Shown here in pieces: positions 14,602-57,186 of a DNA stretch of 64,000 nt (within the stretch, counting starts at the first letter, position 1; every line of letters begins with the position of its first letter). A model generated the notes under the pieces. The model was not told the DNA's origin, did no database searches, and was given only the letters and a program-made list of their open reading frames with translations. This DNA comes from Octopus vulgaris (taxonomy: Eukaryota), in assembly GCA_951406725.2 (NCBI GenBank), contig OX597822.1:35650001-35714000 (forward strand), given 5' to 3'. The position numbers and the translations under genes are program-made.

Positions 14602-14900
14602 ATATATCAAACTAAGGTTAAAGAACAAACAAATACAAGGTCATCCGCATAACATTTCATAATTCGAACATTTAATCATAGAATATACATTTAAACATCC
14701 CGCAAGATGGAACATAATTCACCTGTACAAGCATATAAGCATATAATAAGGTGCGAAAAAAAAGTTCATCGCGGTTTAGAGTTAATAATTTAGCGATTCA
14801 GAAAAATAAATTTTTTAAAAAAACATTACAACATCTAGAAAGTAAAAATATAATATAAAGTAATATATAAAAATATATAGGTATATAAAAATATATAAAA

Positions 14901-14941
<41 letters not shown>

Positions 14942-15195
14942 GAAGCATATAAAAAATATATAATATATATCATGTAAATAAAATAAAAGTTCATCGTTTA
15001 GAAATTTTATAAAATTATTCAAGTAAGAGAAGCCTTATAGTTAAAAAAGAGGAAACCACATTTAATATGGTTTAAATATGGTTTCCTCTTTTTTAACTAT
15101 AAGGCTTCTCTTACTTGAATAATTTTATAAGATTTCTAAACGATGAACTTTTATTTTATTTACATGATATATATTATATATTTTTTATATGCTTC

Positions 15196-15237
<42 letters not shown>

Positions 15238-15524
15238 TTTTATATACCTATATATTTTTATATATTACTTTATATTATATTTTTACTTTCTAGATGTTGT
15301 AATGTTTTTTTAAAAATGTATTTTTCTGAATCGCTAAATTATTAACTCTAAACCGTGATGAACTTTTTTCTCGCACCTTATTATATGCTTATTGCTTGTA
15401 CAGATGAATTATGTTCCATCTTGCGGGATGTTTAAATGTATATTCTATGATTAAATGCTCGAATTATGAAATGTTATGCGGATGACCTTGCATTTGTTTG
15501 TTCTTTAACCTTAGTTTGATATAT
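14602..15524. repeat. ~920-bp fold-back (two ~455-bp inverted arms) between (TA)n tracts
   Basis: ATATATCAAACTAAGG...GGAAACCA mirrors TGGTTTCC...CCTTAGTTTGATATAT; the mirrored ORFs 14798-15022(-) and 15115-15345(+) give near-identical peptides. Confidence 0.95.
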
Positions 15525-20374: not shown

Positions 20375-21175
20375 TTCTATTCTTTTACTTCTTTCAGTCA
20401 TTCGACAGCAGCCATGCAGGAGCACCGCCTTTAGTCGAACAAATCGACCCCAGGACTTATTCTTTGTAAGCCTAATACTTATCCTATGGGTCTCTAAATT
20501 ACAGGTATGTAAACACACCAACATCAGTTGTCAAGCGATGGTGGAGGGACAAACACAGACACACACAGAGATATATACATATATATATATATAACAAAAT
20601 AATAAATAAAACATATGCATATATACATACATATATGTACGTACCTACATCTATATGTATATATACATGCATATATGGGTACAGGACACCAAAAAAACCA
20701 TCGAACACAATGAGAAACGAAAACATAAACACAAAACCAAACGCGGAATAGGCGGCTGAAGAAGGGGAATGTTCGTTGTTTAAGAAAAATGTCCATTTCC
20801 TTGGTTTTGTGTTTATGTTTTCGTTTCTCATTGTGTTCGACGTTTTTTGAGGGGGTGTCATGTACCCATATATGCATGTATATATACATATAGATGTAGG
20901 TGCGTACATATATGTATGTATATATGCATATATTTTATTTATTATTTTGTTATTATATGATAGAACGCACGCATCCACTTCTAAGTAAGTTTTATCTTAA
21001 AAATATATATATATATACACATACGACGAGCTTCTTTCAGTTTCCGACTACCAAATCCACTCACAAGGCTTTGGTCGTCCCGAAGCTATAGTAGAAGACA
21101 CTTGCTCAAGGTGCCATGCAGTGGGACTGAACCGGAAACAATGTGACTGGGAAGCAAGCTTCTTACCACACAGCT
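20375..21175 (-). mobile_element. Family B SINE interrupted in its microsatellite by a fold-back element
   Basis: SINE tail at 20375-20570 and head at 21020-21175. Confidence 0.8.
20590..20956. repeat. Fold-back element with ~150-bp arms and a ~60-nt loop
   Basis: ATAACAAAATAATAAATAAAA...CACAAAACCAA mirrors TTGGTTTTGTG...TTTTATTTATTATTTTGTTAT; same family as 45707-46485 (ATATATGGGTACAGGA end). Confidence 0.9.
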
Positions 21176-21862: not shown

Positions 21863-22925
21863 CGAGGTGGCATCAAAACGTTCCCGGACTAAGTTTTGTA
21901 ACGCGCCAAAGGACGGCAGCACATGGTTGCGCGTAGTGAGAGCTAGCAGTGACCTTCATGAATCAGTGTGCTGAGTGGAATCGCTTCGTTGGGAAATTGT
22001 GTTTTTTGTGATCACGTGAATGCTGTAGTCTGCGATTTTGTCATAAACAAAAACAAAGAGCCAAAGGCGGCGAGCTGGCAGAAACGTTAGCAGGCCGGGC
22101 AAAATACTTAACGGTAATTCGTCTGCCGCTACGTTCTGGGTTCAAATTCCGCCGAGGTCGACTTTGCCTTTCATCCTTTCGTGGTCGATAAATTAAGTAC
22201 CAGTTACGCACTGGGGTCGATGTAATCGACTTAATCCCTTTGTCTGCCCTTGTTTGTCCCCTCTGTGTTTAGCCCCTTGTGGACTATAAAGAAATAAAAA
22301 AAACAAAGAGCCAAAGTGAAATTTAGCGTTAAACTTGAAAAGTCTGCTACGACGATGAGGCAATGGGTCATACACAATGTTTCGAGCGGCATGGGTACTT
22401 CAAAGGTGGAAGAACGTCCCTGGAGGACAATGAGCCATCTGGAAAACCTACTATGGGCGTTGCCTTCAGAAATGTACATCGAAGATTCGTCCCTCATGGC
22501 CAGGCTGTCAATAGAGAGTTCTACTGTGACGTTTTGAAGTTTTTAAGGGAGGTCATTCGGCGAAAGCGACCGGATCTGCGGAGTGCGAAGAATTGGATTC
22601 GTCACCGAGCTCTCTTTACTCGTGAGTTTCTCGCCAAAAGCAACATAATATTGCTTCCACACTCGCCTTATTCGCCAGGTTTAGCCCCTGCGAACTTCCA
22701 TTTCTTCCCCAAGATGAAAATGCAGCTCTTAACACCGTTACCGAAAGCCATAGCGAAAAGCAGGTCCTCGACTCGCTTACAGAAAACGACTTCGAGGTCG
22801 GATTACAAAAGTGACAGGAATGCTGGGACCGATGTATTGCGCAGGGTGACTATTTTGAAGGAGATGATGAAAAAACTTAAGGTAAATAAGTTATATTTTA
22901 TTAAACATAACTAGTCCGAGAACCT
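21863..22925 (+). mobile_element. Internally deleted mariner with a nested SINE
   Basis: FKGGRTSLEDNEPSGKP, EFYCDVLKFLREVIRRKRP, HSPYSPGLAPANFHFFPKMK; TIR-like TACGAGG..GTTCCCGGACT / AGTCCGAGAAC. Confidence 0.88.
22066..22297 (+). mobile_element. Family A SINE inserted in the mariner
   Basis: Full head; target duplication AAAAACAAAGAGCCAAAG on both sides. Confidence 0.92.
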
Positions 22926-26994: not shown

Positions 26995-27374
26995 CTAGCA
27001 GTATCGCCCGGCGTTGCTCAGGTTTGTAAGGAAAATAACTATAAAGCATTTTTAGAGAGTTATAGCCAAAAAATAGCAAAAAAATGGAAAAAAAATGATG
27101 GTAAATTTTTTGAGAGTTAAAAAAGGTGGAGTTGCGTCCCCTAGACGGTCTGTGGTTTGGGTTTCTGATTCTCGACCCCATGTCGAATTTATCGATTTTT
27201 TCAGAACTGGGGGAACTTTTCAAAATTTTCGCTGCGTTAGTTTTGAATTATGACATTGGGCTATGTGTGTGTCAAGTTTCATCAGAATCGGTTGAAAGCC
27301 GTGGTCAGAGTGAGGGTACAACCAAACAGACACACAGAAACACACACAGACAAACTGCCGTTTATATATAGAGA
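26995..27374 (-). mobile_element. Non-autonomous Helitron
   Basis: On the minus strand: 5' TC, short GT-rich tract, subterminal CC.GAGCAACGCCGGG hairpin-like motif, 3' CTAG; same family as 44465-44840. Confidence 0.75.
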
Positions 27375-27512
27375 GATATACATATATATATGCATATATA
27401 TACATATACATATATATACATATATGAACATATATATATGTATATATATATGTATATATATATATATGTATATATGTATATATATATGTATATATGTATA
27501 TATATATATGTA

Positions 27513-27569
<57 letters not shown>

Positions 27570-27808
27570 TATATATATATATACATAAATAATACATAAA
27601 TATATATATACATAGTGTATATACATATACACTATATGGATAACTCTAGTGCTAAAAATAGCTCCGAAGCAACCACAGAAGATCCGTTTCCAACTAGAAT
27701 CAACACACATTTAACTGAAGGAAAGTGAAATGCAACGAATAAAATAGATTAACTCTATACAATTGTTTTTGACGCCCGAATCGATCTAATTAATTGCATT
27801 TCTGACAA

Positions 27809-27884
27809 ACTCTACCGAAGATTTATGGATGCAAGTGTAAGTAAAACTACATATTGCATTAGTAATGAAACAATTGTATAGAGT
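27809..27884 (+). ncRNA. Type I HHR motif with long stem II (U4->C variant), copy 1
   Basis: ACTCTA-CCGAAGA-[..ATGCAA.TGTA..TACA.TTGCAT..]-GAAA-CAATTG-TA-TAGAGT. Confidence 0.72.
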
Positions 27885-28301
27885 CAATCTATTTTATTCG
27901 TTGTATTTCACTTTCCTTCAGTTAAATGTGTGTTGATTCTAGTTGGAAACGGATCTTCTGTGGTTGCTTCGGAGCTATTTTTAGCACTAGAGTTATCCAC
28001 ATAGTGGATAATTCTCTAATAATTTATGTATAAATTTGTATTTTCTCCGTAGTTTTTTGTGCTAAGCCACTTGGTGTTAAATTGACGGTATTATTAAATT
28101 AATATCGATTTTTCACCCTCATTTATAATTTTATAAATTTAACCATGCGGCAGTTAATATTTTATTTGATGCGGCATACGTTTCCAATGGAGTCTAGGCA
28201 TGCTTTTGGCGCGGAATTTGAGACATAACTAAAAATGTAATTGGTTGGACCGCTCGTGTTTTTGACGCCCGAATCGATCTAATTAATTGCATTTCTGACA
28301 A

Positions 28302-28377
28302 ACTCTACCGAAGATTTATGGATGCAAGTGTAAGTAAAACTACATATTGCATTAGTAATGAAACAATTGTATAGAGT
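28302..28377 (+). ncRNA. Type I HHR motif, copy 2
   Basis: Same sequence as 27809-27884, 493 nt downstream. Confidence 0.72.
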
Positions 28378-28628
28378 CAATCTATTTTATTCGTTGTATT
28401 TCACTTTCCTTCAGTTAAATGTGTGTTGATTCTAGTTGGAAACGGATCTTCTGTGGTTGCTTCGGAGCTATTTTTAGCACTAGAGTTATCCACATAGTGG
28501 ATAACTCTCTAATAATTTATGTATAAATTTGTATTTTCTCCGTATTTTTTTTTTTGTGCTAAGCCACTTGGTGTTAAATTGACGGTATTATTAAATTAAT
28601 ATCGATTTTTCACCCTCATTTATAATTT

Positions 28629-28672
<44 letters not shown>

Positions 28673-29619
28673 TATATGTATTATGTACTCTACTTGCATA
28701 GAACATACATATTGCCATATATCTGAAATCTAATGTTTTCTCTTTCCGCAATAGGTTGTGAGTGTTTTCTTATTTTTTAATTTAACTATAGAAAAAATAA
28801 ATCTCATTTCCGTCTATAAACGGTTCTGTGCATTTTTTTTAAACTGCCATTTTCATGAACAATTTAAACAGTCACACTAAACTTCAGAATCATAAAAGGT
28901 AGCGTGAAGAATAAGTTACTTCTTGCATCACTTGAATATTACAATTATTAATCTTTTAATTTGACTGCTATAGAATCATGCAAAATATTCATAGAATTCT
29001 CGAAATTGATGTTATTGCTATTTACAGCAAAAAACATATATGAGATTCAGTGCAGTCACAAACTCTAGCTTCGTAAATCGAGGCCTTTGAAATATCAACG
29101 TCTTTCATTTATTTATTTTTCTTTAACGTTTGTAACCATTCCATTTCATTTATTACGCAAATTTATTTTAGAAGGCAAAAAAAATGAAGGCCACATGATC
29201 TCCTTTCTTCTCAATCGGAAACTTTGTGTTCCTATGTTAGAAATCAATATTACACCATCACGTTTTGCTATCTGAACATTACTGATCAAACAAAAGCCTA
29301 AAATAAACATGTTTGTGCGTATATTTATTTATGTGTGTATGTGTGTATATGTATGTGTACATATGTGTTTGTGTTTATGTACGTGTGCATGTATGTATGC
29401 GCGTTTGTGAATGTATTTGTGTGCGTATGTATTTTTGTATACGTTAGTTGTTTTGTCTTCCTCTGATTGCGATTTTCTGTTTTATCAATCGACTGTCACT
29501 ATAATCCAATTACTCAGATGTGTGTACATTGTTTCTTCATAGTTCTTCGCAGAACTAGATTTAAATCCAAAAAACATAGAACCCCGTCCTACTCAGAAAT
29601 CATTTCTATTATGTCAGAA

Positions 29620-38305: not shown

Positions 38306-39140
38306 CAGTGGACAACTGTTATATATATATAACTGTTATATATATATATATACTGTTATATATATATATATATATATATAACTGTTATATATATATATAA
38401 CAGTGGACAACAACATAAGCTAGGCTACACATATAAGCAGCAAAGTTGACATGGCCCGCAGAATGTGTTCCTGGATTCTCAGAACCTTCCAGTCGAGAGA
38501 TTCCCACGCTATTATCCTTCTCTTCTCCACTTTTGCCCGACCCCACCTTGAATACTGCTGTCCACTGTGGTCTCCCTACACAAAACAAAATATTATGAGA
38601 ATTGAAGCTCCCCAAAGGTCAATCACAAAAAAGATAGATGGCATGTCAGACCTTGACTACTGGGGTAGACTAGAGAAGCTGAAATTGTATTCACTCCAAC
38701 GACGCCGTGAACGCTACATTATCTGTATGATGTGGAAAATATTCCATCAGCACTGTCCGAATGATGTTGGCATCACCTTCAAAATGCATCCAAAGCTTGG
38801 ACCACGTGTTATCCGTCCACAACAAAAATCTAAATCGCATCACATAACGACAATACGGCACAACTATTTCACCTCAATTGGACCCGCTCTCTTCAACATT
38901 ACACCAGGACACGTCAAAAAAGAAACTGACCACACAAAATTCAAGAAGTCTTTGGACAAATTCCTTCAAACAGTACCGGACAAACCACCCACACCCGGAT
39001 ATGTCTCCGCAAACAATAACTCTCTGCTCGAATGGGCCTTGGTGCCCAAATCCTGAACTGAAAGACTTCGCCAGGTGGTGCTATTAAGTTAGACATGGCC
39101 TGGGCCAATACTGGCCAAAACCTTTCTAAGTTATTCTAAG

Positions 39141-39198
<58 letters not shown>

Positions 39199-39455
39199 AT
39201 TATGTATGTATATATGCGCGTGTGTGCGTGTGTGTATATGTATGCATGTCTGTTTTTGAATTTGTTTATGCCATCCCACTGCTTGAAAACTGGTGTTGGT
39301 TTATTTATGTCCACGTAACTTAGCGGCTCGGCAAAGCAGACCGATGGAATAAGTACCGGGCTTTAATAAATAAGTACTAGGATTAGTTTGTTCGACTAAA
39401 CCCTCCAACGTGCTGCTCCAGCATGGACGCAAGCTAATGACTGAAACAAGTAGAA
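38125..39455 (+). mobile_element. Family B SINE split by a LINE insertion in its microsatellite
   Basis: Head at 38125-38275, tail at 39260-39455, CR1 fragment in between. Confidence 0.7.
38398..39142 (+). mobile_element. 5'-truncated CR1-group LINE (ORF2 C-terminus, ORF 38451-39056, plus 3' UTR)
   Basis: RPHLEYCCPLWSPY...QRSITK...YWGRLEKLKLYSLQRRRERY...FKKSLDKFL; short tandem tail TTCTAAGTT ATTCTAAGTT. Confidence 0.92.
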
Positions 39456-39624
39456 AGGAATGGACAAAAGAGAAGTAGGGAGAGTGGAGAGCTTGTAAGA
39501 CCAGATGAAGTCGTGGTGTGTAAAGGAATCACAGAACAGAAGGACTGTTTGAGGTACGAGAGGACGTGAGAAAGGGAATGCAACTAAGAAATATATTATG
39601 AAGGCAGAAAAGAGCATATATATA

Positions 39625-39689
<65 letters not shown>

Positions 39690-39693
<4 letters not shown>

Positions 39694-40065
39694 TAATCAA
39701 TATAGGGTAGCAAAAAATTCAGCAGAAATTATTTTGCTACCAGCGGTCTAGTGAGAAAAAGGAAATAGTCAGAGACTATTTATAAATTCAACAGCAAATT
39801 AAGGAACGGCCATAATAGGCCGTTCAACCCACTAGAAATAACAGCCAAGGCTTCAACCGCAAAATAGTAGTAATTCCGTAAATCAGGAGAAAATTTTAAA
39901 AAATTTTAAAAATTAAAAAAATCAGGAGAAAATTTTAAAAAATTTTTTTTAATGTTTTTTTTATTTTCTCCTGATTTACGGAATTACTACTATTTTGCAG
40001 TTGAAGCCTTGGCTGTTATTTCTAGTGGGTTGAACGGCCTATTATGGCCGTTCCTTAATTTGCTG
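39690..40065 (-). mobile_element. (TA)n-flanked asymmetric fold-back element
   Basis: Arms at 39792-39892 and 39965-40065; unpaired terminal segment at 39690-39791. Confidence 0.8.
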
Positions 40066-40117
<52 letters not shown>

Positions 40118-40119
<2 letters not shown>

Positions 40120-40560
40120 AGAGTAGAGACGGTGAATGCAATTGTCTTCTCAATAGCAACATATGGATGCGAGACCTGGACACTAAAGAAAGCTGACCAG
40201 AAGAGAATTAAGGCATTCGAGCTTTGGTGTTGGAGAAGACTTTTACGGATTCCATGGACAGCGAGGCTCACCAATGGAGAAGTTCTTAAGCAGATCAGGC
40301 CGAAACTGTCGCTGGAGGCTAGGATCACCAAGCATAGATTGGTATATTTCGGTCATACTATGCGGAGAAAATCCCTGGAGAAGGACATCGTGCTCGGAAT
40401 GGTCAGTGGCAAGAGAGGAAGAGGCCAACAAAGAACCCGCTGGCTTGACACCATCAAGAGTCATACCGGAATGGACATAGCCAATCTGAAAGAAGCAGCC
40501 CAGGATAGAACTGACTAGAGGACACTGATTCACCGAGAGTCGACTTCGACTGAGCGGATA
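40118..40560 (+). mobile_element. RTE-clade LINE 3' fragment
   Basis: YGCETWTLKKADQKRIKAFELWCWRRLLRIPWTAR...YFGHTMRR..LEKDIVLG.VSGKRGRG...RWLDTI. Confidence 0.93.
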
Positions 40561-40574
40561 GATAGATATATCAC

Positions 40575-40852
40575 CACACCACACACCACACCACATCACT
40601 ATCTGCGGTACTGAACTGAAATCAACACAACAGTTCACATACCTGGACTGCATCATCTCATCCGATGCAAAGATCGACAAGGAAATTGACAATAGACTCT
40701 CTAAGGCAAATAGCTCCTTTGGCAGATTGTTCAAACATGTTTGACACAATAATAATCTGAAGAACAAGAGAAGAATCAGCGTCTACAAATCCGTAGTTCT
40801 CGCTACTCTTCTCTACGGCTCGGAGACCTGGGCCACCTACCGTAGTCACATC
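40575..40852 (+). mobile_element. Second RTE-clade LINE RT/thumb fragment
   Basis: Hand translation: FTYLDCIISSDAKIDKEIDNRLSKANSSFGRL...VYKSVVLATLLYGSETW. Confidence 0.9.
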
Positions 40853-41271
40853 CTGTGAAAATTCTTATTCTAATCGCAAATGAGAAACATATTGTAAAGG
40901 CAGGAAAGGTCTACATTTTGAATTGATGTAATGTTTGCATTGTTCAATTAAATGGAGTCGCATGAAACGATCGTACTGCATTACCTCTGGATATCCTAGT
41001 TGTTTATTTTGATTATATATATATATATAATTAAATTTAATCAAAGGACATACTAAGTATGTCTGCCTACTGGAAATAACAGTCAAAACTCTTAGTAAGT
41101 CCTTTGATTAATTTTAATTTTAACCCCTCAACTATTTGATGATTTTCTTGGGCCCGTGATTGCCTATATTATTAATTCTGCTATTATAGTCATTCCAGAT
41201 GATAAAATTAATAATATCTTGACAAATCAATTTTCGAGAATTTATATTTTTACTCGCGAATTCTTTGTCCT

Positions 41272-41318
<47 letters not shown>

Positions 41319-41543
41319 ATAAGATCTTTAATTTAAATATCGATCTTATCAAGTGGCCAGCATGGGAATAAAAACCTTCAATGGTAATAACTATTATTAA
41401 AATTATAATTTAGGGTATCTAATAGATACTTCCACGCTGGAAATAGCAGCCAAAACTTGACTCTAAAGTCACATTAAAGGTTCATACAGCACCAGGAGAG
41501 AAGACAAAAAGACAAAATAAACTAGCAAAAAAAATACTGGATA

Positions 41544-41602
41544 ATTCCAGATCCCAGATTTCTGAGTTTTGCATAAGAAATGCTTTGCCTCATCAGTGGA
41601 AT
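41544..41602 (-). ncRNA. Type I HHR motif with an intact core and weakened stem II
   Basis: Minus strand: ATTCCA-CTGATGA-[..GCAT(TTCTT)ATGC..]-GAAA-TCTGGGA-TC-TGGAAT. Confidence 0.65.
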
Positions 41603-41901
41603 ATACACAGATATCTGTGTATATTCCACTTATTATAATTTCATATATATATATATATCGTTTATGCGTGTGTGTTTATGGGCGTATGTATGAATGTATA
41701 TGCATATGAACACACATACACACTCTCTTACACACACACACACACACACATATGTATGTATTATAATCCATATCTCATATATGTGTGTAATTGGAATAGA
41801 TTAAGCGATTAAAAGAAGTTTGAATAAATACGAAAATGTATTTATATTTATACAAATATAAATACATTTATCACGTGTGCGTTTGTGTATTTACATAAAT
41901 A

Positions 41902-42749
41902 TTGGGCCATCCCATAAATAATGTGGGTTTTTTTAATTGTGTGAACTAAAACTCGGAGTGGGGCGGGATAAACTACCTGCATCAACTTGCTATAAAAGCA
42001 GGTAGTAATTTTAAGTTTTAAAGAGTGCAGTTCGATTTTAGCAGTTATTTTTTCAAAGCTATAAGGGAAGTGGCAAAGGTGCATATTCGGCATATTTTGA
42101 TCTATGAGTTCGATAAAGTTAACAACGTAACCGAAAGTGCGAGGAATATTAATGCAGTATATAGGGATCGGACAGCCTAGAAGACGAGCCTCGTCCTGGA
42201 AAATCTGTAGAGCTCGGCGAGGACGTCCTGCAAGCCCTGGTGGAACAAAATCCCATCGCAACTGTTGAGGAACTAGCAGAGAAGCTTGGATTTGGTCTTT
42301 CAACAAGTCATTCAAGTCAGCAGTAGAAGAAAAACGACCATCTTTGGTTTGAAGACGAAAGGTGTTCTTCTATCAGGATAATCCTCGGCCACATACAGTC
42401 AGGTTGACATTCCAAAGGCTGGAGTAATTTGAATGGGGAACGATGCTCCACCCATTATATTCGCCGGACATTGCCCCATCTGATTATCATTTATTCTGCA
42501 GTCTTCAAAATCATTTGAACGGGAAAAAAATATGAATTCTGTAGACGAGGTCAGAACAGTACTGGTGGAAATTTTTTCGTTACGGAAAAGTGAATTTTGG
42601 AAGAGGGGCCTTACAAGTTTAACAGATATATGGAAGAGCATTGTAGAAAATGAAGGAGAGTATATTTTAGATGATTAAAAATGACTTTGTTTATCTTAAT
42701 TTTGAAAAATAAAAGTATAGAAAACCGCATTATTTATGGGATGACCCAA
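41902..42749 (+). mobile_element. Internally deleted mariner
   Basis: TIRs TTGGGCCATCCCATAAATAATG / CATTATTTATGGGATGACCCAA with TA flanks; remnants LEDEPRPG, QDNPRPH, YSPDIAPSDYHLF. Confidence 0.92.
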
Positions 42750-42764
42750 TACATTTATTATACA

Positions 42765-42800
<36 letters not shown>

Positions 42801-42986
42801 TATATATAAAAAAATTTAAAGAAGACAAAAATGGAGAAGTATCGATGAACAACAATTGACCTACATCAGCTTTGATCTATGAGTTCAATGAATACTTCTA
42901 GCCCTCAGACGGTTATTTTAACCTCTAACTCAGCTAACATATATATATATGTGTGTGTGTACGTATGTATATGTATGTATGTATGT

Positions 42987-42987
<1 letters not shown>

Positions 42988-43077
<90 letters not shown>

Positions 43078-43090
43078 TAGATATAGATAT
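42988..43090. repeat. (GATA)n microsatellite
   Basis: Read directly; another at 46861-46935. Confidence 0.95.
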
Positions 43091-43621
43091 AAAGCATAAA
43101 CACACAACACACACATATACATAGGGAGGTCGAGAAAGAGTTCCAATTAAAATGAATAAAAGCAACCCAAGCCACCATTGTTGAGAAGCATCGCCTAGAT
43201 ATTCCGAAGTCAGAGGTTAATATTTCCATTCTTATTTTACAGCCTAACTAGAAGCCATTAATTGTATTGTTGTACTGAAACAACCCCCACGAGAAATTAG
43301 ACTGACCAATGCTAGGCATCTACATAACAGAAAAAAATCTTAAAATACATTATGATAACACAAAAAGGAAAATATATTTCAACAAAGCGAAACATATTGA
43401 AGACAAGAATAGCAACAACAAAAATAAATTTGCACATGTTTTGTATTTTATCAAATGAAAATGTAGCCAGCAAAAACAAGGCGCGATCCTTCGGTAGTGT
43501 TCTTTCCAACAAGAAAACCCTAGGTATGAAACCTGTTACTAAAAGAACAGAAGCTTGACCAAAACGAGGACCAGCCTTTCACGGTTTATTAGAGTTGAGC
43601 GAGAGGCAGATAATAACATAC

Positions 43622-44172
43622 CTATTTCTTTATTGCCCACAAGGGGCTAAACACAGAGGGGACAAACAAGGACAGACATAGGTATTAAGTCGATTACATC
43701 GACCCCAGTGCGTAACTGGTACTTAATTTATCGACCCCGAAAGGATGAAAGGCAAAGTCGACCTCGGCGGAATTTAAACTCACAACGTAACGCAGATGAA
43801 ATACCGCTAAGCATTTCGCCCGGCGTGCTAGCGTTTCTGCCAGCTCGCCGCCGATGGCAGAAAATAACATACCTTTGTCTTGCCATAACAGCATCAGCGG
43901 CGAGCTGGTAGAAACGTTAACGCGCCGGGAGAAATGCTTAACGGTATTTCGTCTGCGTTACGTTGTGAGTTCAAATTCCGCCGCGGTCGACTTTGCCTTT
44001 CATCCTTTCGGGGTCGATAAATTAAGTACCAGTTACGCACTGGGGTCGATGTAATCGACTTAATACCTATGTCTGTCCTTATTTGTCCCCTCTCTGTTTA
44101 GCCCCATGTGGGTAATAAAGAAATAGAAATAGGTATTTCGTCTGCCGCTACGTTCTGAGTTCAAATTCCGCC
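43622..44172. mobile_element. Two family A SINEs head-to-head (43622-43852 minus, 43897-44172 plus)
   Basis: Consensus matches; ATAACATACCT is duplicated around the minus copy. Confidence 0.9.
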
Positions 44173-44440
44173 AGAACTTTTTCTAAAACTACTTTAAACT
44201 AGGGATAAAGTAAAAATGTAAAATTCAATGGGTTTTTTTTTTTCAAAAGATGTATTAGTCTTCAGTAATATGCAGCTTTTAGTTTCACCGTAATTGGATC
44301 ATTAGGTCAGAGTTCTAATCCTTTTTATGCTTTGATTATAATCAACCAATTTCAATGAAACTATTAGTTACAATATGACAGAATATAATCCAGCTTTTAA
44401 AACACACGCGCGCGCACACACATACACACATACATACTTT

Positions 44441-44464
<24 letters not shown>

Positions 44465-44472
<8 letters not shown>

Positions 44473-44839
44473 AACGGCAGTTTGTCTGTGCGTGTTTCTG
44501 CGTGTCTGTTTGCTTGTACCCTCACCCTGACCACGGCTTTCAACCGATTCTGATGAAACTTGACACACACATAGCCCAATGTCATAATTCAAAACTAACG
44601 CAGCGAAAATTTTGAAAAGTTCCCCCAGTTCTGAAAAAAATCGATAAATTCAACATGGGGTCGAGAATCAGAAACACAAACCGCAAACTGTCTAGGGGAC
44701 GCAACTCCACCTTTTTACTCTCAAAAAAAATTTACCATCATTTTTTTCCATTTTTTGGCTATTTTTTGGCTATAACTCTCTAAAAATGCTTTATAGTTAT
44801 TTCCCTTACAAACCTGAGCAACGCCGGGCGATACTGCTA

Positions 44840-44840
<1 letters not shown>
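44465..44840 (+). mobile_element. Non-autonomous Helitron
   Basis: Ends CCTGAGCAACGCCGGGCGATACTGCTAG|T; homologous to 26995-27374. Confidence 0.75.
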
Positions 44841-44875
<35 letters not shown>

Positions 44876-45023
44876 ATGTATATGTATTCCAATATTTCCC
44901 TTAAGCATAGCGAGACAAATAACTGGTGTCATCTCTTTTTTCTTATCCCCACTCTATACTCATCTAACATTGTGTATGTGTACGTATATGTGTGTATGTG
45001 TCTGTGTGCTTATATGTGTGTGT

Positions 45024-45081
<58 letters not shown>

Positions 45082-45190
45082 ATGTATGTATGTATGTATG
45101 TATGTATGTATGTATGTATGTATATGCATACGTATATATATATATAGTTGAAAAAAAAAAGATTTGAGATCAATACAAATCAAATTTGTA

Positions 45191-45577
45191 TATATAAAGG
45201 ATGGAGTTGGAAATAGCACACAAGTAAGTCTAAGATATTTCAATTCAAGAAGGAGTTTAATAAAAAGGATTTTAAAAAGTTATTTTTAAAAATCATACAA
45301 AGAAGATATTACCAGTTTCGATGAATCTCGTCTTATCAGAAAAATGTCTGGGGGTGAAGAACATGATCTTGACCCTCAGGCAGAAGATAAACTGGTGTTA
45401 CTTCAAATTTTTGTAAATTTTTACTGATATTTGATAAGATGAGATTCATCGAAAACGGCAATATCTTCTTTATATGTTTTTGAAATAATTTTTTAAATCA
45501 TTTTTATTAAATTCCTTCTTGAATTGAAATGTCTTAGACTTACTTCTGTGCTAATTCTACCTCAATCCTTTATATAT
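45191..45577. mobile_element. Fold-back element with an HHR-like motif in both arms
   Basis: Arms at 45191-45338 and 45432-45577; GATAT-TTGATAA-GATGA(GAT)TCATC-GAAA-ACGG-CA-ATATC at 45426-45465. Confidence 0.75.
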
Positions 45578-45619
45578 GTATGTATATATATATATATAAT
45601 ATATTACATATGCATATAC

Positions 45620-45706
<87 letters not shown>

Positions 45707-45711
<5 letters not shown>

Positions 45712-46485
45712 TATATAGGTACAGAACGTCACCAACGGTGCAAATAACATAATATACGTAAACAAAAGAGGGGAAAAACGAGTGAATTACGTAAACAACG
45801 AGAAAAATGGAAAGCAGGAAAAGTAAACACAGAGGAAGGACCCTTCATCAGTTGTTGGCTGTCTATCTACTCCTCATTTCGAGCATTCAACGATAATGTG
45901 AGTCTTCAAAGACAGTTGCTCCCATAAATTCTAAAATAAAATTTAGGATTTATGGAGGGTCAAAGTTGGGAGCAAAAACAGGATAGTGGAGACATACAAG
46001 GAAACCGAACGAAAACTAACATGGAGGGTCGTTAGACCAGAACGAGAGGAAATAGTGAACGCTGGGAGAAACATCTTTCTCTTTCTCTCTTCTATCTTTT
46101 CTCTTGTCAAAAAAAATGTTTCTCCCAGCGTTCACTATTTTCCTCTCGTTCTGATCTAACGATCCTCCATGTTTGCTTTCGTTCGGTTTCCTTGTATGTC
46201 TCCAGTAATTTTTTTTTTTGTTTCCAACTTTGACCCTCCATAAATCCAAAATTTTATTTTAGAATTTATGGGAGCAACTGTCTTTGAAGATTCATATTGT
46301 CGTTGAATACTCGAAATGAGGAGTAGATAGACAGCCGACAACTGATGAAGGGTCCTTTCTCTGTGTTAACTTGTCCTCTTTTTCCTTTTTTTCTCGTTGT
46401 TTACGTAATTCACTTGTTTGCCCTAGTTTGTTTATGTATTTCATGTTATTTGCACTGTTGGTGACGCCCTGTACCCATATATGCA
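45707..46485. mobile_element. ~780-bp fold-back element between (TA)n tracts
   Basis: Arms at ~45707-46073 and ~46116-46485 with a pyrimidine-rich loop; related to 15630-15930 and 20590-20956. Confidence 0.9.
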
Positions 46486-46544
<59 letters not shown>

Positions 46545-46861
46545 AAATATTAGGGAATAAATCCAAACTTACAGGGAAAAATCAGATTTAGGTTTAAATC
46601 CAATTTTATAGTATAAATATATTATATTATATTATATTAAATTAGAGATAAAACCACTATTAGGCAAATCAAACAATGAAAAACATAAGCCAATACATAA
46701 AATTAATTTAATTTTATTATTTTAAATATATATCAAAAGTATTAAAAGTTTAATGTTTTTATTATAACATAAAAATAAACATTAGTGTGTGTGTATGCGT
46801 ATATATATATATATATAATATTATTTATTATTTAATTGGATGTGACGCATCTATTTCCAAG

Positions 46862-46935
<74 letters not shown>

Positions 46936-47641
46936 TTGTCAAAGCGTCTTATTCAATTTTCAATTATATTATTATCCTCTTAGTTGTAAGTTGTAAGTAA
47001 TTATGCACAGATAAAGTGCATAATTCCATATCCCCTCTAATGACAGACAATTTTAAAAGCTAAATTATATTTATATACATCAAACGCCTATCACGAAAAT
47101 TATCTACCGAATTAAGACATAATGATTAATATCTTGCATTAGAAAACATCTGCCTATTCCACTCACTCATCAACTCTTCCTCATTAGCCAATTATCAAAC
47201 TTTTTTCTCTTTACAGTGACTTTGCATAAAAGTACAATAAATATTTCTCTCGTGAATTTATAGAGAAATTACTTAACTAATCATTTCGTACAGTTCTTAG
47301 CAGTTTCTTAATACTTAAATATCATATGTAATACTTGAATATCACATGTAAAACTTAAATATCATATGTGATACGATGAAATATCTCTGTCCTATTTTTC
47401 TTTTGCATTATAGGTGCACACAGGTGTGTAGTTAAGAAGCTTTCTTGGCAACTACGTGGTTTGGTCGGGTGGTAGTTGAGTCTCACTGCTCGGTACCCTT
47501 GGACAAGTGTCCTCTAATATAGCTCCGGGGACGACCAATGCCTTGTAAGTAAATTTGGTAGGCGGAAATTTGATACACACATACACACATATATATACAC
47601 AAACAACATATATATGCAAACTTGTATATATGTGTGTATAC

Positions 47642-47700
<59 letters not shown>

Positions 47701-47774
47701 TATAGTTGAAATTTGCAGAAAAACAAAAGACGAAAACAGGTGTATTAGTTTGACGCTCGGGAAGGTGAGAAAGT

Positions 47775-47809
47775 CTTTACGTTTCGAGCCGACGCATTTC
47801 AGCAGAAAG
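47775..47809 (-). ncRNA. Decayed minimal HHR-like motif
   Basis: CTTT-CTGCTGA-A-ATGC(GTCG)GCTC-GAAA-CG-TA-AAG; same family as 19085-19120. Confidence 0.5.
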
Positions 47810-48298
47810 GAACACGATGAAATAAACAGATAGAGAATAAAAAGAGAGAGAATATTAAATTTAAATTCAGATGAATATGGTACTTAAATTCACTCTTTGA
47901 CAGTCAAAGAGTGAATTTGCTACTATCATGTAATACTTACAGTGTTTAATAAAATGAAGTAGCATGAAACAATTGTACTGCTCTACCTCGGATATACTTG
48001 TTGCTTATTTTGAGTATATATATATATATATTATTCTTTAACAAGAATAGTACTGACAGTGACTTCGAAGTAAGCCATCATCATCCAATGATGACTGATG
48101 TCACAGTCAATATTATTCTTGGGAATGAATAATAAATTTGTACTCTACCAAAAGGTGTTGAGTAATCCTTCCATTTAATGTAAAATTGTTTTTATTATAA
48201 CATAAAAATAAACATTAGTATGTGTGTGTGTGTGTGTGTGTGTATATGTATGATTGATTCTAGTTTCAGCTCATGAGCTGTGGCCATGCTGGGGCACC

Positions 48299-48330
<32 letters not shown>

Positions 48331-49299
48331 ATAAATATATATATACCAGGCTTTAAAAATACATGAATACTAGTGTCGATTTGTTCGATTAAATCCTTCA
48401 ACGTGGTGCCCCAGCATGGCTGCAGTCTAATGACTGAAAGATGAAAATCTTTCCGTTTTAGAACGACTTGTGTGGACATGAGCGTGGGTGTATGTATGAG
48501 TGTTTGACAAGGTATGTACGTGTTGGAATTGTCTGTTGGCACTCATATAAAGTGTTACAGGTAGATAAGCTTTCTGGTTAGACAGCAATGTACTCCAGTC
48601 GGGGCTCTAATAGAAGAACCGCCTCCACTACTTAAGAACGGCAAAGTTATCCTAAGCGGGGTTTGAATTCAGAATGCAAACAGTCGGAAAAATAGCTCGA
48701 AGCATTTTATCTGATTTTGCGAAATCACCAAATATATTCTATATAATTGAGAAGTTACTATAATTTGTATGAATTGCCATCTTAAGAAAAGCAAATGTTA
48801 GACAATTCTTTATTCAGTGTTCACTCAAAATACTCACTCAAAATACTGAGTCACGTTTAAGCGTATGTTCCGAGATAGTTTTTAAGACCAGATGCTGAAT
48901 TTTTAAGATCTAGAGCAAACATGGCAGGCAAAAATCAGCACCTCTGCAGAAGAATTTCGTGTGTCTGTGGAATGACATTGCTATGCATAAATCTTCGCAG
49001 TCAAGGATTGTTTGGGGTTTACCAATTTTCCTGCTCACAACACAAATATTATATTACGAAGGAGAAAGTACAATATTGGTATGAAAAAACAATTTCTGTA
49101 AGAATGTGAGAGATTTCATGTGATAAATATAGCTTACTTTCGAGAAAAAAAATCGTGCAGGTATCGCACTTTCAACTCTAGATTATAGGCAGGTGTTGTA
49201 TGGGATATTAACGTATGGAAAATTTTACGCATGTTAATATACCATATGTATAATATGTGAAACTATTGCACAGAAACAATTATGGAGATTTGGTTGTAT

Positions 49300-49427
49300 A
49301 TTTGTATGTATGTATGTATGTATGTATGTATGTATGTATGTATGTATGTATTATGTATGTATGTATGTATGTATGTATGTATGTATGTATGTATGTATGT
49401 ATGTATGTATGTATGTACGTATGTATG

Positions 49428-49458
<31 letters not shown>

Positions 49459-49942
49459 TATGTATGTATGTATTATGTATGTATTTATGTATGTACGTAT
49501 GTATGTATGTATGTATGTATGTATGTATGTATGTATGTATGTACGTACGTATGTATGTATGTATGCATGTATGTATTATGTATGTATGTATGTATTATGT
49601 ATGTATGTATGTATTATGTATGTATGTATGTATTATGTATGTATTTATGTATGTACGTATGTATGTATGTATGTACGTATGTATGTATGTATGTAAGAAT
49701 GTATGTATGTATGTATGTATGTATGTATGTATTATGTATGTATGTATGTATTATGTATGTATTTATGTATGTACGTATGTATGTATGTATGTATGTATGT
49801 ATGTATGTATGTATGTATGTATGTATGTATTATGTATGTATGTATGTATTATGTATGTGTATGTATGTATTATGTATGTATGTATGTATGTATGTATGTA
49901 TGTATGTATGTATGTATGTATGTATGTATGTATGTATGTATG
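49300..49942. repeat. Long (TATG)n array with variant units
   Basis: Read directly; second version at ~61460-62090. Confidence 0.97.
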
Positions 49943-50881
49943 TCTCTTCTATTTTTTAATTGTTATAAATCTTCCACTGAGGAGGGAGCCGGTTTCCAGC
50001 AAAGATACAAGGCCCCATCTCTGGGACGTAGTTAACAAAGACAAGTTCATATTTGAAGCTTGAGAAAACGCTATACGACTTCCCGATTAAAAACGTTTGG
50101 TGACTGCAATTAGAAATGAAGGAAAATTCAAATTGACTAGTTAGCTATCAAAGGTATAGAGGAATAGTAATCAAAAGCATATATTTATATATACACTCAT
50201 CTGAAGCAAAAAAAAAAAAATAAATAAAAAGAAAAGAAAAGATATCTACAGTGTACGTCTGAGAAATTTCATATTTTCATATTTACTACAGTTTATTTAT
50301 AGCGTTTTACTGAATATCTGAAAGAGCAGGTATGTCCTGTATGCCCGTTTTGGAATGTATTTTCGGTTAGAACGATATAATATTTACTGTATGCTTTCTA
50401 TTAAAGAATCTTATGTCCGATATAGCAAGGATATAGTAAGGCACTTACCATGAAAGGAAGAAATTTAATATGAGCTGGAAGTGAGTGGTTTTGTCTGTTC
50501 GTACTTCTGAGATTTCTTCTATTCGTTTTGCCTGTAGAAATAGCAAACTTTTTTTTATATAACTGTGATTGAAATTTTTTGTTAAGCTGCTTCTAGCATT
50601 TATGATTAATTTGAAAATTTATTTGCATTATATTTAGAAAGGTTTGCAATACTGGAAATTATGTTCAAGCTAATAGGAGATTGAACCAAATAATTTCCTT
50701 TTCCTGTGTTGCCTTATATATTATGATTAACAAAATATAAATTAATCTTAACACGAATTTTTTCCGTTAGATTCTCTAATTGCTTCAATTAAATTATTTC
50801 TGAAATAATCCAGTTCATGGCTGTTCATATGATGGGAAATTGTTAGTCATTTCGTAACGAACTAAGTTTAATTAAATCTTT

Positions 50882-50981: not shown

Positions 50982-51292
50982 CTAAATCGCATCACATAAC
51001 GACAATACGGCACAACTATTTCACCTCAATTGGACCCGCTCTCTTCAACATTACACCAGGACACGTCAAAAAAGAAACTGACCACACAAAATTCAAGAAG
51101 TCTTTGGACAAATTCCTTCAAACAGTACCGGACAAACCACCCACACCCGGATATGTCTCCGCAAACAATAACTCTCTGCTCGAATGGGCCTTGGTGCCCA
51201 AATCCTGAACTGAAAGACTTCGCCAGGTGGTGCTATTAAGTTAGACATGGCCTGGGCCAATACTGGCCAAAACCTTTCTAAGTTATTCTAAG

Positions 51293-51350
<58 letters not shown>

Positions 51351-51775
51351 ATTATGTATGTATATATGCGCGTGTGTGCGTGTGTGTATATGTATGCATG
51401 TCTGTTTTTGAATTTGTTTATGCCATCCCACTGCTTGAAAACTGGTGTTGGTTTATTTATGTCCACGTAACTTAGCGGCTCGGCAAAGCAGACCGATGGA
51501 ATAAGTACCGGGCTTTAATAAATAAGTACTAGGATTAGTTTGTTCGACTAAACCCTCCAACGTGCTGCTCCAGCATGGACGCAAGCTAATGACTGAAACA
51601 AGTAGAAAGGAATGGACAAAAGAGAAGTAGGGAGAGTGGAGAGCTTGTAAGACCAGATGAAGTCGTGGTGTGTAAAGGAATCACAGAACAGAAGGACTGT
51701 TTGAGGTACGAGAGGACGTGAGAAAGGGAATGCAACTAAGAAATATATTATGAAGGCAGAAAGAGCATATATATA

Positions 51776-51849
<74 letters not shown>

Positions 51850-52215
51850 CAATATAGGGTAGCAAAAAATTCAGCAGAAATTATTTTGCTACCAGCGGTC
51901 TAGTGAGAAAAAGGAAATAGTCAGAGACTATTTATAAATTCAACAGCAAATTAAGGAACGGCCATAATAGGCCGTTCAACCCACTAGAAATAACAGCCAA
52001 GGCTTCAACCGCAAAATAGTAGTAATTCCGTAAATCAGGAGAAAATTTTAAAAAATTTTAAAATTAAAAAAATCAGGAGAAAATTTTAAAAATTTTTTTT
52101 AATGTTTTTTTTATTTTCTCCTGATTTACGGAATTACTACTATTTTGCAGTTGAAACCTTGGCTGTTATTTCTAGTGGGTTGAACGGCCTATTATGGCCG
52201 TTCCTTAATTTGCTG

Positions 52216-52267
<52 letters not shown>

Positions 52268-53419
52268 AGAGTAGAGACGGTGAATGCAATTGTCTTCTCA
52301 ATAGCAACATATGGATGCGAGACCTGGACACTAAAGAAAGCTGACCAGAAGAGAATTAAGGCATTCGAGCTTTGGTGTTGGAGAAGACTTTTACGGATTC
52401 CATGGACAGCGAGGCTCACCAATGGAGAAGTTCTTAAGCAGATCAGGCCGAAACTGTCGCTGGAGGCTAGGATCACCAAGCATAGATTGGTATATTTCGG
52501 TCATACTATGCGGAGAAAATCCCTGGAGAAGGACATCGTGCTCGGAATGGTCAGTGGCAAGAGAGGAAGAGGCCAACAAAGAACCCGCTGGCTTGACACC
52601 ATCAAGAGTCATACCGGAATGGACATAGCCAATCTGAAAGAAGCAGCCCAGGATAGAACTGACTAGAGGACACTGATTCACCGAGAGTCGACTTCGACTG
52701 AGCGGATAGATAGATATATCACCACACCACACACCACACCACATCACTATCTGCGGTACTGAACTGAAATCAACACAACAGTTCACATACCTGGACTGCA
52801 TCATCTCATCCGATGCAAAGATCGACAAGGAAATTGACAATAGACTCTCTAAGGCAAATAGCTCCTTTGGCAGATTGTTCAAACATGTTTGACACAATAA
52901 TAATCTGAAGAACAAGAGAAGAATCAGCGTCTACAAATCCGTAGTTCTCGCTACTCTTCTCTACGGCTCGGAGACCTGGGCCACCTACCGTAGTCACATC
53001 CTGTGAAAATTCTTATTCTAATCGCAAATGAGAAACATATTGTAAAGGCAGGAAAGGTCTACATTTTGAATTGATGTAATGTTTGCATTGTTCAATTAAA
53101 TGGAGTCGCATGAAACGATCGTACTGCATTACCTCTGGATATCCTAGTTGTTTATTTTGATTATATATATATATATAATTAAATTTAATCAAAGGACATA
53201 CTAAGTATGTCTGCCTACTGGAAATAACAGTCAAAACTCTTAGTAAGTCCTTTGATTAATTTTAATTTTAACCCCTCAACTATTTGATGATTTTCTTGGG
53301 CCCGTGATTGCCTATATTATTAATTCTGCTATTATAGTCATTCCAGATGATAAAATTAATAATATCTTGACAAATCAATTTTCGAGAATTTATATTTTTA
53401 CTCGCGAATTCTTTGTCCT

Positions 53420-53470
<51 letters not shown>

Positions 53471-54927
53471 ATAAGATCTTTAATTTAAATATCGATCTTA
53501 TCAAGTGGCCAGCATGGGAATAAAAACCTTCAATGGTAATAACTATTATTAAAATTATAATTTAGGGTATCTAATAGATACTTCCACGCTGGAAATAGCA
53601 GCCAAAACTTGACTCTAAAGTCACATTAAAGGTTCATACAGCACCAGGAGAGAAGACAAAAAGACAAAATAAACTAGCAAAAAAAATACTGGATAATTCC
53701 AGATCCCAGATTTCTGAGTTTTGCATAAGAAATGCTTTGCCTCATCAGTGGAATATACACAGATATCTGTGTATATTCCACTTATTATAATTTCATATAT
53801 ATATATATATCGTTTATGCGTGTGTGTTTATGGGCGTATGTATGAATGTATATGCATATGAACACACATACACACTCTCTTACACACACACACACACACA
53901 CATATGTATGTATTATAATCCATATCTCATATATGTGTGTAATTGGAATAGATTAAGCGATTAAAAGAAGTTTGAATAAATACGAAAATGTATTTATATT
54001 TATACAAATATAAATACATTTATCACGTGTGCGTTTGTGTATTTACATAAATATTGGGCCATCCCATAAATAATGTGGGTTTTTTTAATTGTGTGAACTA
54101 AAACTCGGAGTGGGGCGGGATAAACTACCTGCATCAACTTGCTATAAAAGCAGGTAGTAATTTTAAGTTTTAAAGAGTGCAGTTCGATTTTAGCAGTTAT
54201 TTTTTCAAAGCTATAAGGGAAGTGGCAAAGGTGCATATTCGGCATATTTTGATCTATGAGTTCGATAAAGTTAACAACGTAACCGAAAGTGCGAGGAATA
54301 TTAATGCAGTATATAGGGATCGGACAGCCTAGAAGACGAGCCTCGTCCTGGAAAATCTGTAGAGCTCGGCGAGGACGTCCTGCAAGCCCTGGTGGAACAA
54401 AATCCCATCGCAACTGTTGAGGAACTAGCAGAGAAGCTTGGATTTGGTCTTTCAACAAGTCATTCAAGTCAGCAGTAGAAGAAAAACGACCATCTTTGGT
54501 TTGAAGACGAAAGGTGTTCTTCTATCAGGATAATCCTCGGCCACATACAGTCAGGTTGACATTCCAAAGGCTGGAGTAATTTGAATGGGGAACGATGCTC
54601 CACCCATTATATTCGCCGGACATTGCCCCATCTGATTATCATTTATTCTGCAGTCTTCAAAATCATTTGAACGGGAAAAAATATGAATTCTGTAGACGAG
54701 GTCAGAACAGTACTGGTGGAAATTTTTTCGTTACGGAAAAGTGAATTTTGGAAGAGGGGCCTTACAAGTTTAACAGATATATGGAAGAGCATTGTAGAAA
54801 ATGAAGGAGAGTATATTTTAGATGATTAAAAATGACTTTGTTTATCTTAATTTTGAAAAATAAAAGTATAGAAAACCGCATTATTTATGGGATGACCCAA
54901 TACATTTATTATACATACATACATACA

Positions 54928-54963
<36 letters not shown>

Positions 54964-55146
54964 TATATATAAAAAAATTTAAAGAAGACAAAAATGGAGA
55001 AGTATCGATGAACAACAATTGACCTACATCAGCTTTGATCTATGAGTTCAATGAATACTTCTAGCCCTCGAGACGGTTATTTTAACCTCTAACTCAGCTA
55101 ACATATATATATATGTGTGTGTGTACGTATGTATATGTATGTATGT

Positions 55147-55237
<91 letters not shown>

Positions 55238-56600
55238 TAGATATAGATATAAAGCATAAACACACAACACACACATATACATAGGGAGGTCGAGAAAGAG
55301 TTCCAATTAAAATGAATAAAAGCAACCCAAGCCACCATTGTTGAGAAGCATCGCCTAGATATTCCGAAGTCAGAGGTTAATATTTCCATTCTTATTTTAC
55401 AGCCTAACTAGAAGCCATTAATTGTATTGTTGTACTGAAACAACCCCCACGAGAAATTAGACTGACCAATGCTAGGCATCTACATAACAGAAAAAAATCT
55501 TAAAATACATTATGATAACACAAAAAGGAAAATATATTTCAACAAAGCGAAACATATTGAAGACAAGAATAGCAACAACAAAAATAAATTTGCACATGTT
55601 TTGTATTTTATCAAATGAAAATGTAGCCAGCAAAAACAAGGCGCGATCCTTCGGTAGTGTTCTTTCCAACAAGAAAACCCTAGGTATGAAACCTGTTACT
55701 AAAAGAACAGAAGCTTGACCAAAACGAGGACCAGCCTTTCACGGTTTATTAGAGTTGAGCGAGAGGCAGATAATAACATACCTATTTCTTTATTGCCCAC
55801 AAGGGGCTAAACACAGAGGGGACAAACAAGGACAGACATAGGTATTAAGTCGATTACATCGACCCCAGTGCGTAACTGGTACTTAATTTATCGACCCCGA
55901 AAGGATGAAAGGCAAAGTCGACCTCGGCGGAATTTAAACTCACAACGTAACGCAGATGAAATACCGCTAAGCATTTCGCCCGGCGTGCTAGCGTTTCTGC
56001 CAGCTCGCCGCCGATGGCAGAAAATAACATACCTTTGTCTTGCCATAACAGCATCAGCGGCGAGCTGGTAGAAACGTTAACGCGCCGGGAGAAATGCTTA
56101 ACGGTATTTCGTCTGCGTTACGTTGTGAGTTCAAATTCCGCCGCGGTCGACTTTGCCTTTCATCCTTTCGGGGTCGATAAATTAAGTACCAGTTACGCAC
56201 TGGGGTCGATGTAATCGACTTAATACCTATGTCTGTCCTTATTTGTCCCCTCTCTGTTTAGCCCCATGTGGGTAATAAAGAAATAGAAATAGGTATTTCG
56301 TCTGCCGCTACGTTCTGAGTTCAAATTCCGCCAGAACTTTTTCTAAAACTACTTTAAACTAGGGATAAAGTAAAAATGTAAAATTCAATGGGTTTTTTTT
56401 TTTCAAAAGATGTATTAGTCTTCAGTAATATGCAGCTTTTAGTTTCACCGTAATTGGATCATTAGGTCAGAGTTCTAATCCTTTTTATGCTTTGATTATA
56501 ATCAACCAATTTCAATGAAACTATTAGTTACAATATGACAGAATATAATCCAGCTTTTAAAACACACGCGCGCGCACACACATACACACATACATACTTT

Positions 56601-56632
<32 letters not shown>

Positions 56633-57002
56633 AACGGCAGTTTGTCTGTGCGTGTTTCTGCGTGTCTGTTTGCTTGTACCCTCACCCTGACCACGGCTTT
56701 CAACCGATTCTGATGAAACTTGACACACACATAGCCCAATGTCATAATTCAAAACTAACGCAGCGAAAATTTTGAAAAGTTCCCCCAGTTCTGAAAAAAA
56801 TCGATAAATTCGACATGGGGTCGAGAATCAGAAACACAAACCGCAAACTGTCTAGGGGACGCAACTCCACCTTTTTTTACTCTCAAAAAAAAAGTTACCA
56901 TCATTTTTTTCCATTTTTTGGCTATTTTTTGGCTATAACTCTCTAAAAATGCTTTATAGTTATTTCCCTTACAAACCTGAGCAACGCCGGGCGATACTGC
57001 TA

Positions 57003-57038
<36 letters not shown>

Positions 57039-57186
57039 ATGTATATGTATTCCAATATTTCCCTTAAGCATAGCGAGACAAATAACTGGTGTCATCTCTT
57101 TTTTCTTATCCCCACTCTATACTCATCTAACATTGTGTATGTGTACGTATATGTGTGTATGTGTCTGTGTGCTTATATGTGTGTGT

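Follow-up and report, generated by a model that had tools for sequence, protein, structure and literature searches.

The window analysed here is a 64,000-nt stretch of Octopus vulgaris DNA. It contains a short repeat array embedded, as had been predicted, in (TA)n, with TA tracts on both sides (Table 1). Alignment of the direct repeats (27764–28134 and 28257–28631, 375 nt aligned) gave 98.4% identity at a period of 493 nt. The predicted 493-nt-period repeat in two copies was therefore present, but its supposed ~370-nt unit was not: the repeat unit is 493 nt long, and ~370 nt is only the portion that occurs twice in an array of 1.75 units. No stop-to-stop frames longer than 50 aa were found within the element, in agreement with the predicted absence of an ORF.

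Table 1. Features of the hammerhead array and its flanks, in window coordinates
Feature	Position	Strand	Basis or remark
Left (TA)n-rich target microsatellite	27363–27629	.	Sequence
Second (back-to-back) arm	27630–27768	-	Runs from inside GAAA, across the cut site; halts ~20 nt before S1
5-nt microhomology linking the 5′ ends of both arms	27764–27768	.	Overlap of arm coordinates
Main arm, 1.75 units of the 493-nt repeat	27764–28631	+	Terminates at S2
Type I hammerhead 1, predicted cut after 27878	27809–27884	+	Sequence, covariation; activity predicted
Predicted 493-nt monomer between both cut sites	27879–28371	+	Sequence, circular fold, closed contigs
12-bp hairpin, then ~9 nt on to 3′-end site S1 (monomer ~146)	27989–28024	+	Again at 28482–28517
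~107-nt S1-to-S2 tail	28025–28132	+	Ends at S2 (monomer ~251–254)
Type I hammerhead 2, predicted cut after 28371	28302–28377	+	Identical to hammerhead 1
Right (TA)n target microsatellite	28629–28681	.	Sequence

The inverted arm was 97.8% identical to 28361–28499, and it starts one base into the GAAA. Thus, the inverted copy was confirmed, but the meaning attached to its start was not. Among the 88 arms mapped at 56 loci (see below), only two had a 5′ end 10 nt or less from the cut site, against 3.6 expected; the start at GAAA is therefore a coincidence. Because 5′ ends were scattered over the 88 arms, we rejected the idea that the hammerhead sets the inversion point. The inverted piece is an additional arm, primed independently of the first. 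A ~26-nt fold-back-like stretch follows its end.

Other repeats were recorded in the window. Immediately left of the element, in the same (TA)n tract, lies a ~376-nt dispersed repeat (26995–27370) that is 95% identical to further copies at 44465–44840 and 56625–57003; its ends recall, we assume, those of non-autonomous Helitron-like elements. A 12.1-kb tandem duplication (38830–50881 and 50982–63027, 98.9% identity) is either a recent duplication or an uncollapsed haplotype. More long back-to-back inversions occur at 14602–15524, 45639–46550, 57806–58718, 20582–20962 and 43622–44126, several of them in TA repeats; these probably represent insertions with two arms from other families, of Penelope or SINE type. 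Lastly, a 191-aa frame at 22339–22911 resembles part of a mariner-type transposase.

The hammerhead and its variant core

Both hammerheads have the stem I ACTCTA/TAGAGT, the core CCGAAGA followed by GAAA, and a GUA cleavage triplet, with a spacing of 45 nt from A9 to G12 (a long stem II). Stem III consists of 2 bp with a palindromic loop (palindrome CAAUUG), and a U-U mismatch (U10.1-U11.1) lies at the base of stem II. All motifs predicted for the two type I hammerheads were thus present, and so was the U4-to-C change in both copies. The exact motif pattern had 165 genomic matches and none in the reversed control, so more than chance explains it. Genome-wide, a hammerhead pattern that combines the canonical core with this stem III had 1,857 matches, and the control had four.

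The proposed check against Rfam gave no match: scans of the region returned only microsatellite-driven miRNA matches and sub-threshold ones, with no hammerhead up to E = 10. In the fold check, the minimum-energy fold of the single motif left stem III unformed (z = −1.9). The circular fold of the 493-nt monomer had z = −4.7 against 40 shuffles.

Covariation was assessed in 20 representatives hand-picked from four related families; these share kinship, and the shuffle control is not a probability. Across them, 91% of cells pair. Changes on both sides were seen in 5/6 pairs of stem I and in 4/4 of basal stem II, far above the slid controls, whereas the middle of stem II pairs poorly (58%) and stem III is invariant. 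Stems I and II therefore covary across the four families, as the prediction had implied.

Position 4 is C in 116 of 117 family units, and the lone U sits at a CpG; core positions 3 and 5 are unchanged across all 117. We therefore rejected local decay: U4C characterises the family and does not reflect damage to this copy. Only 29 of the 165 motif matches carry U4, 28 of them in a sister family whose unit is 530 nt long and one in this family, leaving 136 matches without U4; all others among the 100 matches listed carry C4. C4 occurs also in the other related families, and position 10.1-11.1 is G-C in two related families and U-U here and in most of the sister family. A short hammerhead-like family with a C4 core, unrelated in sequence and likewise in TA repeats, was seen at L080 (position 2713) and L086.

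Elsewhere, U4C lowers hammerhead activity in vitro, and is weaker there yet sufficient for viroid infectivity, while U10.1-U11.1 is tolerated (PMC3088659). Short palindromic helices III act via dimers in tandem repeats (PMC4209133). By analogy with these ribozymes, the hammerhead would be slow and dimer-dependent.

The family and its insertion ends

A search of the 2.8-Gb genome with the 493-nt unit returned 2144 candidates, of which 40 were scored; these held 149 matches, most of them 93–100% identical. In keeping with the original prediction, the element proved to be multi-copy rather than single-copy; it belongs to a young dispersed family, and the locus is one recent insertion. A related pattern had 1,429 further matches, in families of 534–535 nt. 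The four related families each keep their own period (493–535 nt) and have in common the stem III palindrome, an apical hairpin in stem II and two terminal modules.

We examined 56 loci, namely the 40 from the unit search and 16 of 19 further loci chosen among the motif matches listed, a sample that leans to longer, hammerhead-bearing copies. All consisted of arms with the 493-nt period, which border on TA repeats, on a second arm or on unrelated DNA. Each arm is made up of head-to-tail units only, and its 5′ end varies from arm to arm; the median length is 1.04 units and the longest 7.1, and 12 arms have at least 2.5 units. With its 493-nt period, multi-unit arms, type I hammerhead in every unit, lack of coding sequence and absence of LTR architecture, the family fits the definition of an animal non-LTR retrozyme at the sequence level.

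Results showed two fixed 3′ ends, ~146 nt (S1) and ~252 nt (S2) past the cut site and each directly 3′ of a hairpin. The 88 arms ended at monomer 133–155 (S1) in 43 cases, at 238–259 (S2) in 41, and elsewhere or unmapped in four; TA repeats were found at the ends of 86. Thirty loci were two-armed, with the arms joined 5′-to-5′, many with short overlaps. Among these, 27 clearly paired S1 with S2, two were compatible with that pairing and one (L132) was unclassifiable; none had both arms at the same site. The compatible class comprises the window’s own locus, with an S2 end and an arm ~20 nt short of S1, and L138, where an interrupted arm has its far piece ending at S1.

All features of Penelope-type products were present: 5′ truncation, an inverted partner copy, a one-end tail and a microsatellite target. 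A Penelope protein cuts and extends both strands, starting at two internal sites that bracket the tail (PMC11167929), and the Penelope tail is found at one end only (PMC8557442 section 11). Our loci are most simply explained if the two cut strands prime at separate fixed sites. Because the arms terminate in the manner of this genome’s autonomous Penelope-like elements, we read the family as a Penelope-type retroelement, and its Penelope-type mobilisation is nearly certain. The prediction of a non-autonomous, hammerhead-bearing Penelope-type retroelement was accordingly upheld in the multi-copy, young and non-coding family with covarying stems and Penelope-like ends.

Template and candidate enzymes

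Units differed at 0.54% of positions within arms, 0.78% between the arms of a locus and 2.6% between loci. Thirteen of 14 locus-private variants present in at least two units were fixed across their locus, and none was partial within an arm (84 others were singletons), although private variants may stem from source loci outside the sample. Both arms had the same haplotype at 17 of 21 testable loci and differed at four, against 22 matches in 616 cross-locus pairs; a clonal transcript pool would likewise make arms alike. Long arrays come in many haplotypes, nearly all homogeneous. Near-clonal units together with long arrays in many haplotypes led us to conclude that a single-monomer bottleneck, then amplification at or near the insertion, is very probable. 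One 7.1-unit array, L152 (G000:C17:37329930-37333551), grades between two haplotypes and reflects either template switching, recombination or an assembly artefact. We found no support for fixation of RNA edits, the 14 shared private variants including 3 A>G and 5 T>C, a small number.

The bases around the scissile bond were intact in 130 of 130 crossings, and exact over 16 nt in 126. A ligated circle fits this better than jumps between cut monomers, and we consider a covalent circle the probable template.

The 493-nt unit was present in 19 sequencing runs from seven studies, none recorded as RNA. Three of the four runs assembled (X1, X9 and X10) each yielded one self-closing 523-nt contig (493+30) that kept C4, at depths of 135, 15 and 28, respectively; another X1 contig, which enters TA at S1, had a depth of 5. 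The X1 cycle equals exact units of L003 and L004, and the X9 and X10 cycles lie one and two changes, respectively, from the nearest sampled unit. Run X2, labelled as another species, had ten A>G changes, most of them grouped on two contigs of low depth; six of the ten do not occur in 138–147 genomic units, which hints at A-to-I editing of the hammerhead strand. The RNA status of the runs is guessed, and closed contigs also result when an assembler collapses a tandem repeat; at this assembly level, the contigs weakly suggest release of the predicted 493-nt monomer.

The element contains no ORF for an RT with GIY-YIG, as an autonomous Penelope-like element would. Two young autonomous families were found in the same genome. 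In a Hydra-type family, copies are 97–100% identical and contain an intact 841-aa frame with DKT, YRDD and CxCX5C; its two-armed loci paired S1 with S2 in 10 of 10 cases, with ends assigned by distance. It shares the CAAUUG stem III with our element. The S1 termini of the two align with a score of 31, matched by one in 3000 shuffles and by none of 2000 background windows. The S2 terminus of the element is ambiguous, scoring 28 against S1 of the Neptune-like family described below and 26 against Hydra-type S2. The candidate helper (L235/L170) has the Hydra-clade features, namely a C-terminal GIY-YIG, CxCX5C linker, DKT, CxxC, CxH, a hammerhead and a (TA)n target, while the RWK motif reads KWK; clade placement is by motifs against PMC8557442 section 11. 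In L235 (636–6946; also L170) the unit is ~6.3 kb with an Asn-rich 841-aa frame, and in L235 the 3′ non-coding part of ~4 kb is internally repetitive. This is much longer than the <3 kb given for the Hydra clade.

A second young autonomous family has an 811-aa RT-GIY frame, and we take it to be Neptune-like. Both families insert in (TA)n with two ends. At L175 (minus strand) the Neptune-like element has two ORFs (495 and 811 aa) and a terminal hammerhead-like motif with a compensated U3-A8 core. As a helper it is possible and less favoured, given its different stem III, U3-A8 core, 41-nt tail and lack of S1 similarity.

Only the ~30-nt S1 motif and stem III are shared between the element and the Hydra-type family. 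Extended or terminal homology was absent in 17 + 20 autonomous-type loci, a sample of the genome’s Penelope families; no in-register ORF-bearing parent occurred among the loci examined, and 19 more divergent Hydra-type loci, tried as parents, had no terminus in common with the element. On its motifs and termini, the Hydra-type family would be the likeliest helper candidate, ahead of the Neptune-like one, and we think it reasonably probable that it serves this family.

Mechanism, alternatives and known systems

Our preferred model, which we hold to be fairly probable, is that the element is a variant animal non-LTR retrozyme copied by a Penelope-type RT-endonuclease, probably of the Hydra clade, around a self-cleaved, circularised monomer. 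The array would be transcribed on the hammerhead strand, a step for which support is weak, and the tandem hammerheads would then cleave, probably as dimers through the palindromic stem III. A host ligase may close the 493-nt circle, by comparison with newt, axolotl and mussel retrozymes. The presumed enzyme would nick both (TA)n strands, and each DNA end would prime at S1 or S2, as the footprint of fixed ends indicates. Each cDNA would roll for 0.1–7 units and stop at a variable point, and the two cDNAs would be joined 5′-to-5′, often by microhomology; both steps match footprints at the loci. Against the model stands the fact that one predicted ribozyme combines U4C with a U-U mismatch at the foot of stem II and a stem III of only 2 bp. 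The mosaic array L152, the four discordant arm pairs, the ambiguous S2 terminus and the lack of extended homology to a helper also weigh against it. In Xenopus, eight of nine retrozyme dimers failed to cleave and one was active (10.64898/2026.07.22.740005).

It is also conceivable, if unlikely, that the Penelope machinery copies uncut linear multimers, with a weak or vestigial hammerhead and with long arrays arising from long source loci or from post-insertion tandem expansion. In vitro, a Penelope element starts internally on unprocessed RNA and can insert without its hammerhead (PMC11167929); amplification in place is the course of events envisaged in 10.64898/2026.07.22.740005. U4C plus U-U and the median arm of just 1.04 units also agree with it, and the closed contigs could derive from one transcribed tandem locus. 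However, the 12 long arms occur in several haplotypes, nearly all homogeneous, and repeated monomer-to-multimer steps are therefore needed. Moreover, the lack of private variants partial within an arm is unlike unequal crossing-over, and invariant core positions 3 and 5 and covarying stems do not suit a vestigial ribozyme. If instead the monomer were cut but stayed linear, multimers would come from template jumps of the RT between clonal monomers or from RNA-to-RNA copying. This would account equally well for clonality if the expressed pool were one haplotype, as in each of three runs, and the mosaic L152 and the four discordant arm pairs show that more than one template is usable. We judge it very unlikely, as 5′ ends do not pile up at the cut site (2/88) and no bases were gained or lost in the 130 crossings of the scissile bond. 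Template jumps usually leave scars.

Still more improbable is that the copies are detached pLTRs of an autonomous Penelope-like element not yet found. Such pLTRs do carry hammerheads of this kind and form partial tandems and inversions (PMC8557442, PMC4209133). Against this, every one of the 56 loci has the 493-periodic arms and the borders described above, the four related families each have their own period, and the 17 + 20 autonomous-type loci show no terminal homology. Within our preferred model of a copied circle, we tentatively entertain a further possibility, which we rate as doubtful: a dimeric Hydra-type enzyme may copy one 493-nt circle from two starts at once, one per cut strand, with U4C as a selected brake that would leave the circle closed for as long as rolling requires. 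If true, this would explain why the C4 family (136 matches) outnumbers its U4 sister (28) and appears younger, and why C4 is found in two other related families.

The return of retrozymes to DNA, and the enzyme responsible, have been proposed before and not shown. This family offers a footprint that can be counted: clonal arrays, junctions free of scars, and a pair of fixed starts of which each DNA strand uses one. With a young, intact candidate helper in the same genome, the question is testable in vitro with one RNA and one protein. The C4 family and its U4 sister form a natural ribozyme pair whose stem II is unusually long; Rfam did not recognise this shape here. Our search of main-text literature, to which supplements may add examples, found no paper that describes retrozymes of cephalopods or paired start sites in any retrozyme. 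Retrozymes as a class are already known; what sets this family apart is its 45-nt stem II, its family-wide C4 and the paired-start footprint.

Retrozymes have been linked to pLTRs (10.64898/2026.07.22.740005), and circle-templated tandem cDNA synthesis by Penelope-like elements has been proposed for them (PMC7229834). Our element resembles the animal non-LTR retrozymes in its basal helix II U-U, seen also in axolotl HHR_Amex2, and in having Penelope-like elements as proposed helpers (PMC7229834; 10.64898/2026.07.22.740005). It differs in its stem II, which is 45 nt long and has a conserved hairpin at the apex, in its family-wide C4 and strict (TA)n targeting, and in two fixed 3′ ends and back-to-back arms, which the consulted portions of those papers do not describe. 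Circle expression is shown for those retrozymes, whereas for the octopus element it is a prediction.

Hydra-clade elements share with it (TA)n insertion, canonical hammerheads and a one-end tail (PMC8557442 section 11). Tail lengths are 107 nt for our element, 86 nt for the local Hydra-type family and 30–40 nt as given in PMC8557442. That local family agrees with our element in stem III, in a motif resembling S1 and in the pairing of S1 with S2; our element differs in having no ORF and no extended homology to it. Anolis Poseidon in vitro likewise cuts and extends both strands, with two internal RT starts bracketing the tail and an AT-rich target; in contrast, it is autonomous, uses a linear template and does not need its hammerhead for insertion (PMC11167929). 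Chlamys elements such as MRC1 are also non-autonomous and Penelope-type with multicopy head-to-tail insertions, but they are algal, belong to a clade mostly without canonical hammerheads and have 3′ sequence in common with their helpers (PMC8557442). Lastly, the viroid U4C hammerhead variant (cited in PMC3088659) has the same core change, compatible with function in vivo; there it is a viroid variant, whereas here it is fixed across the more than 100 units of a genomic family.
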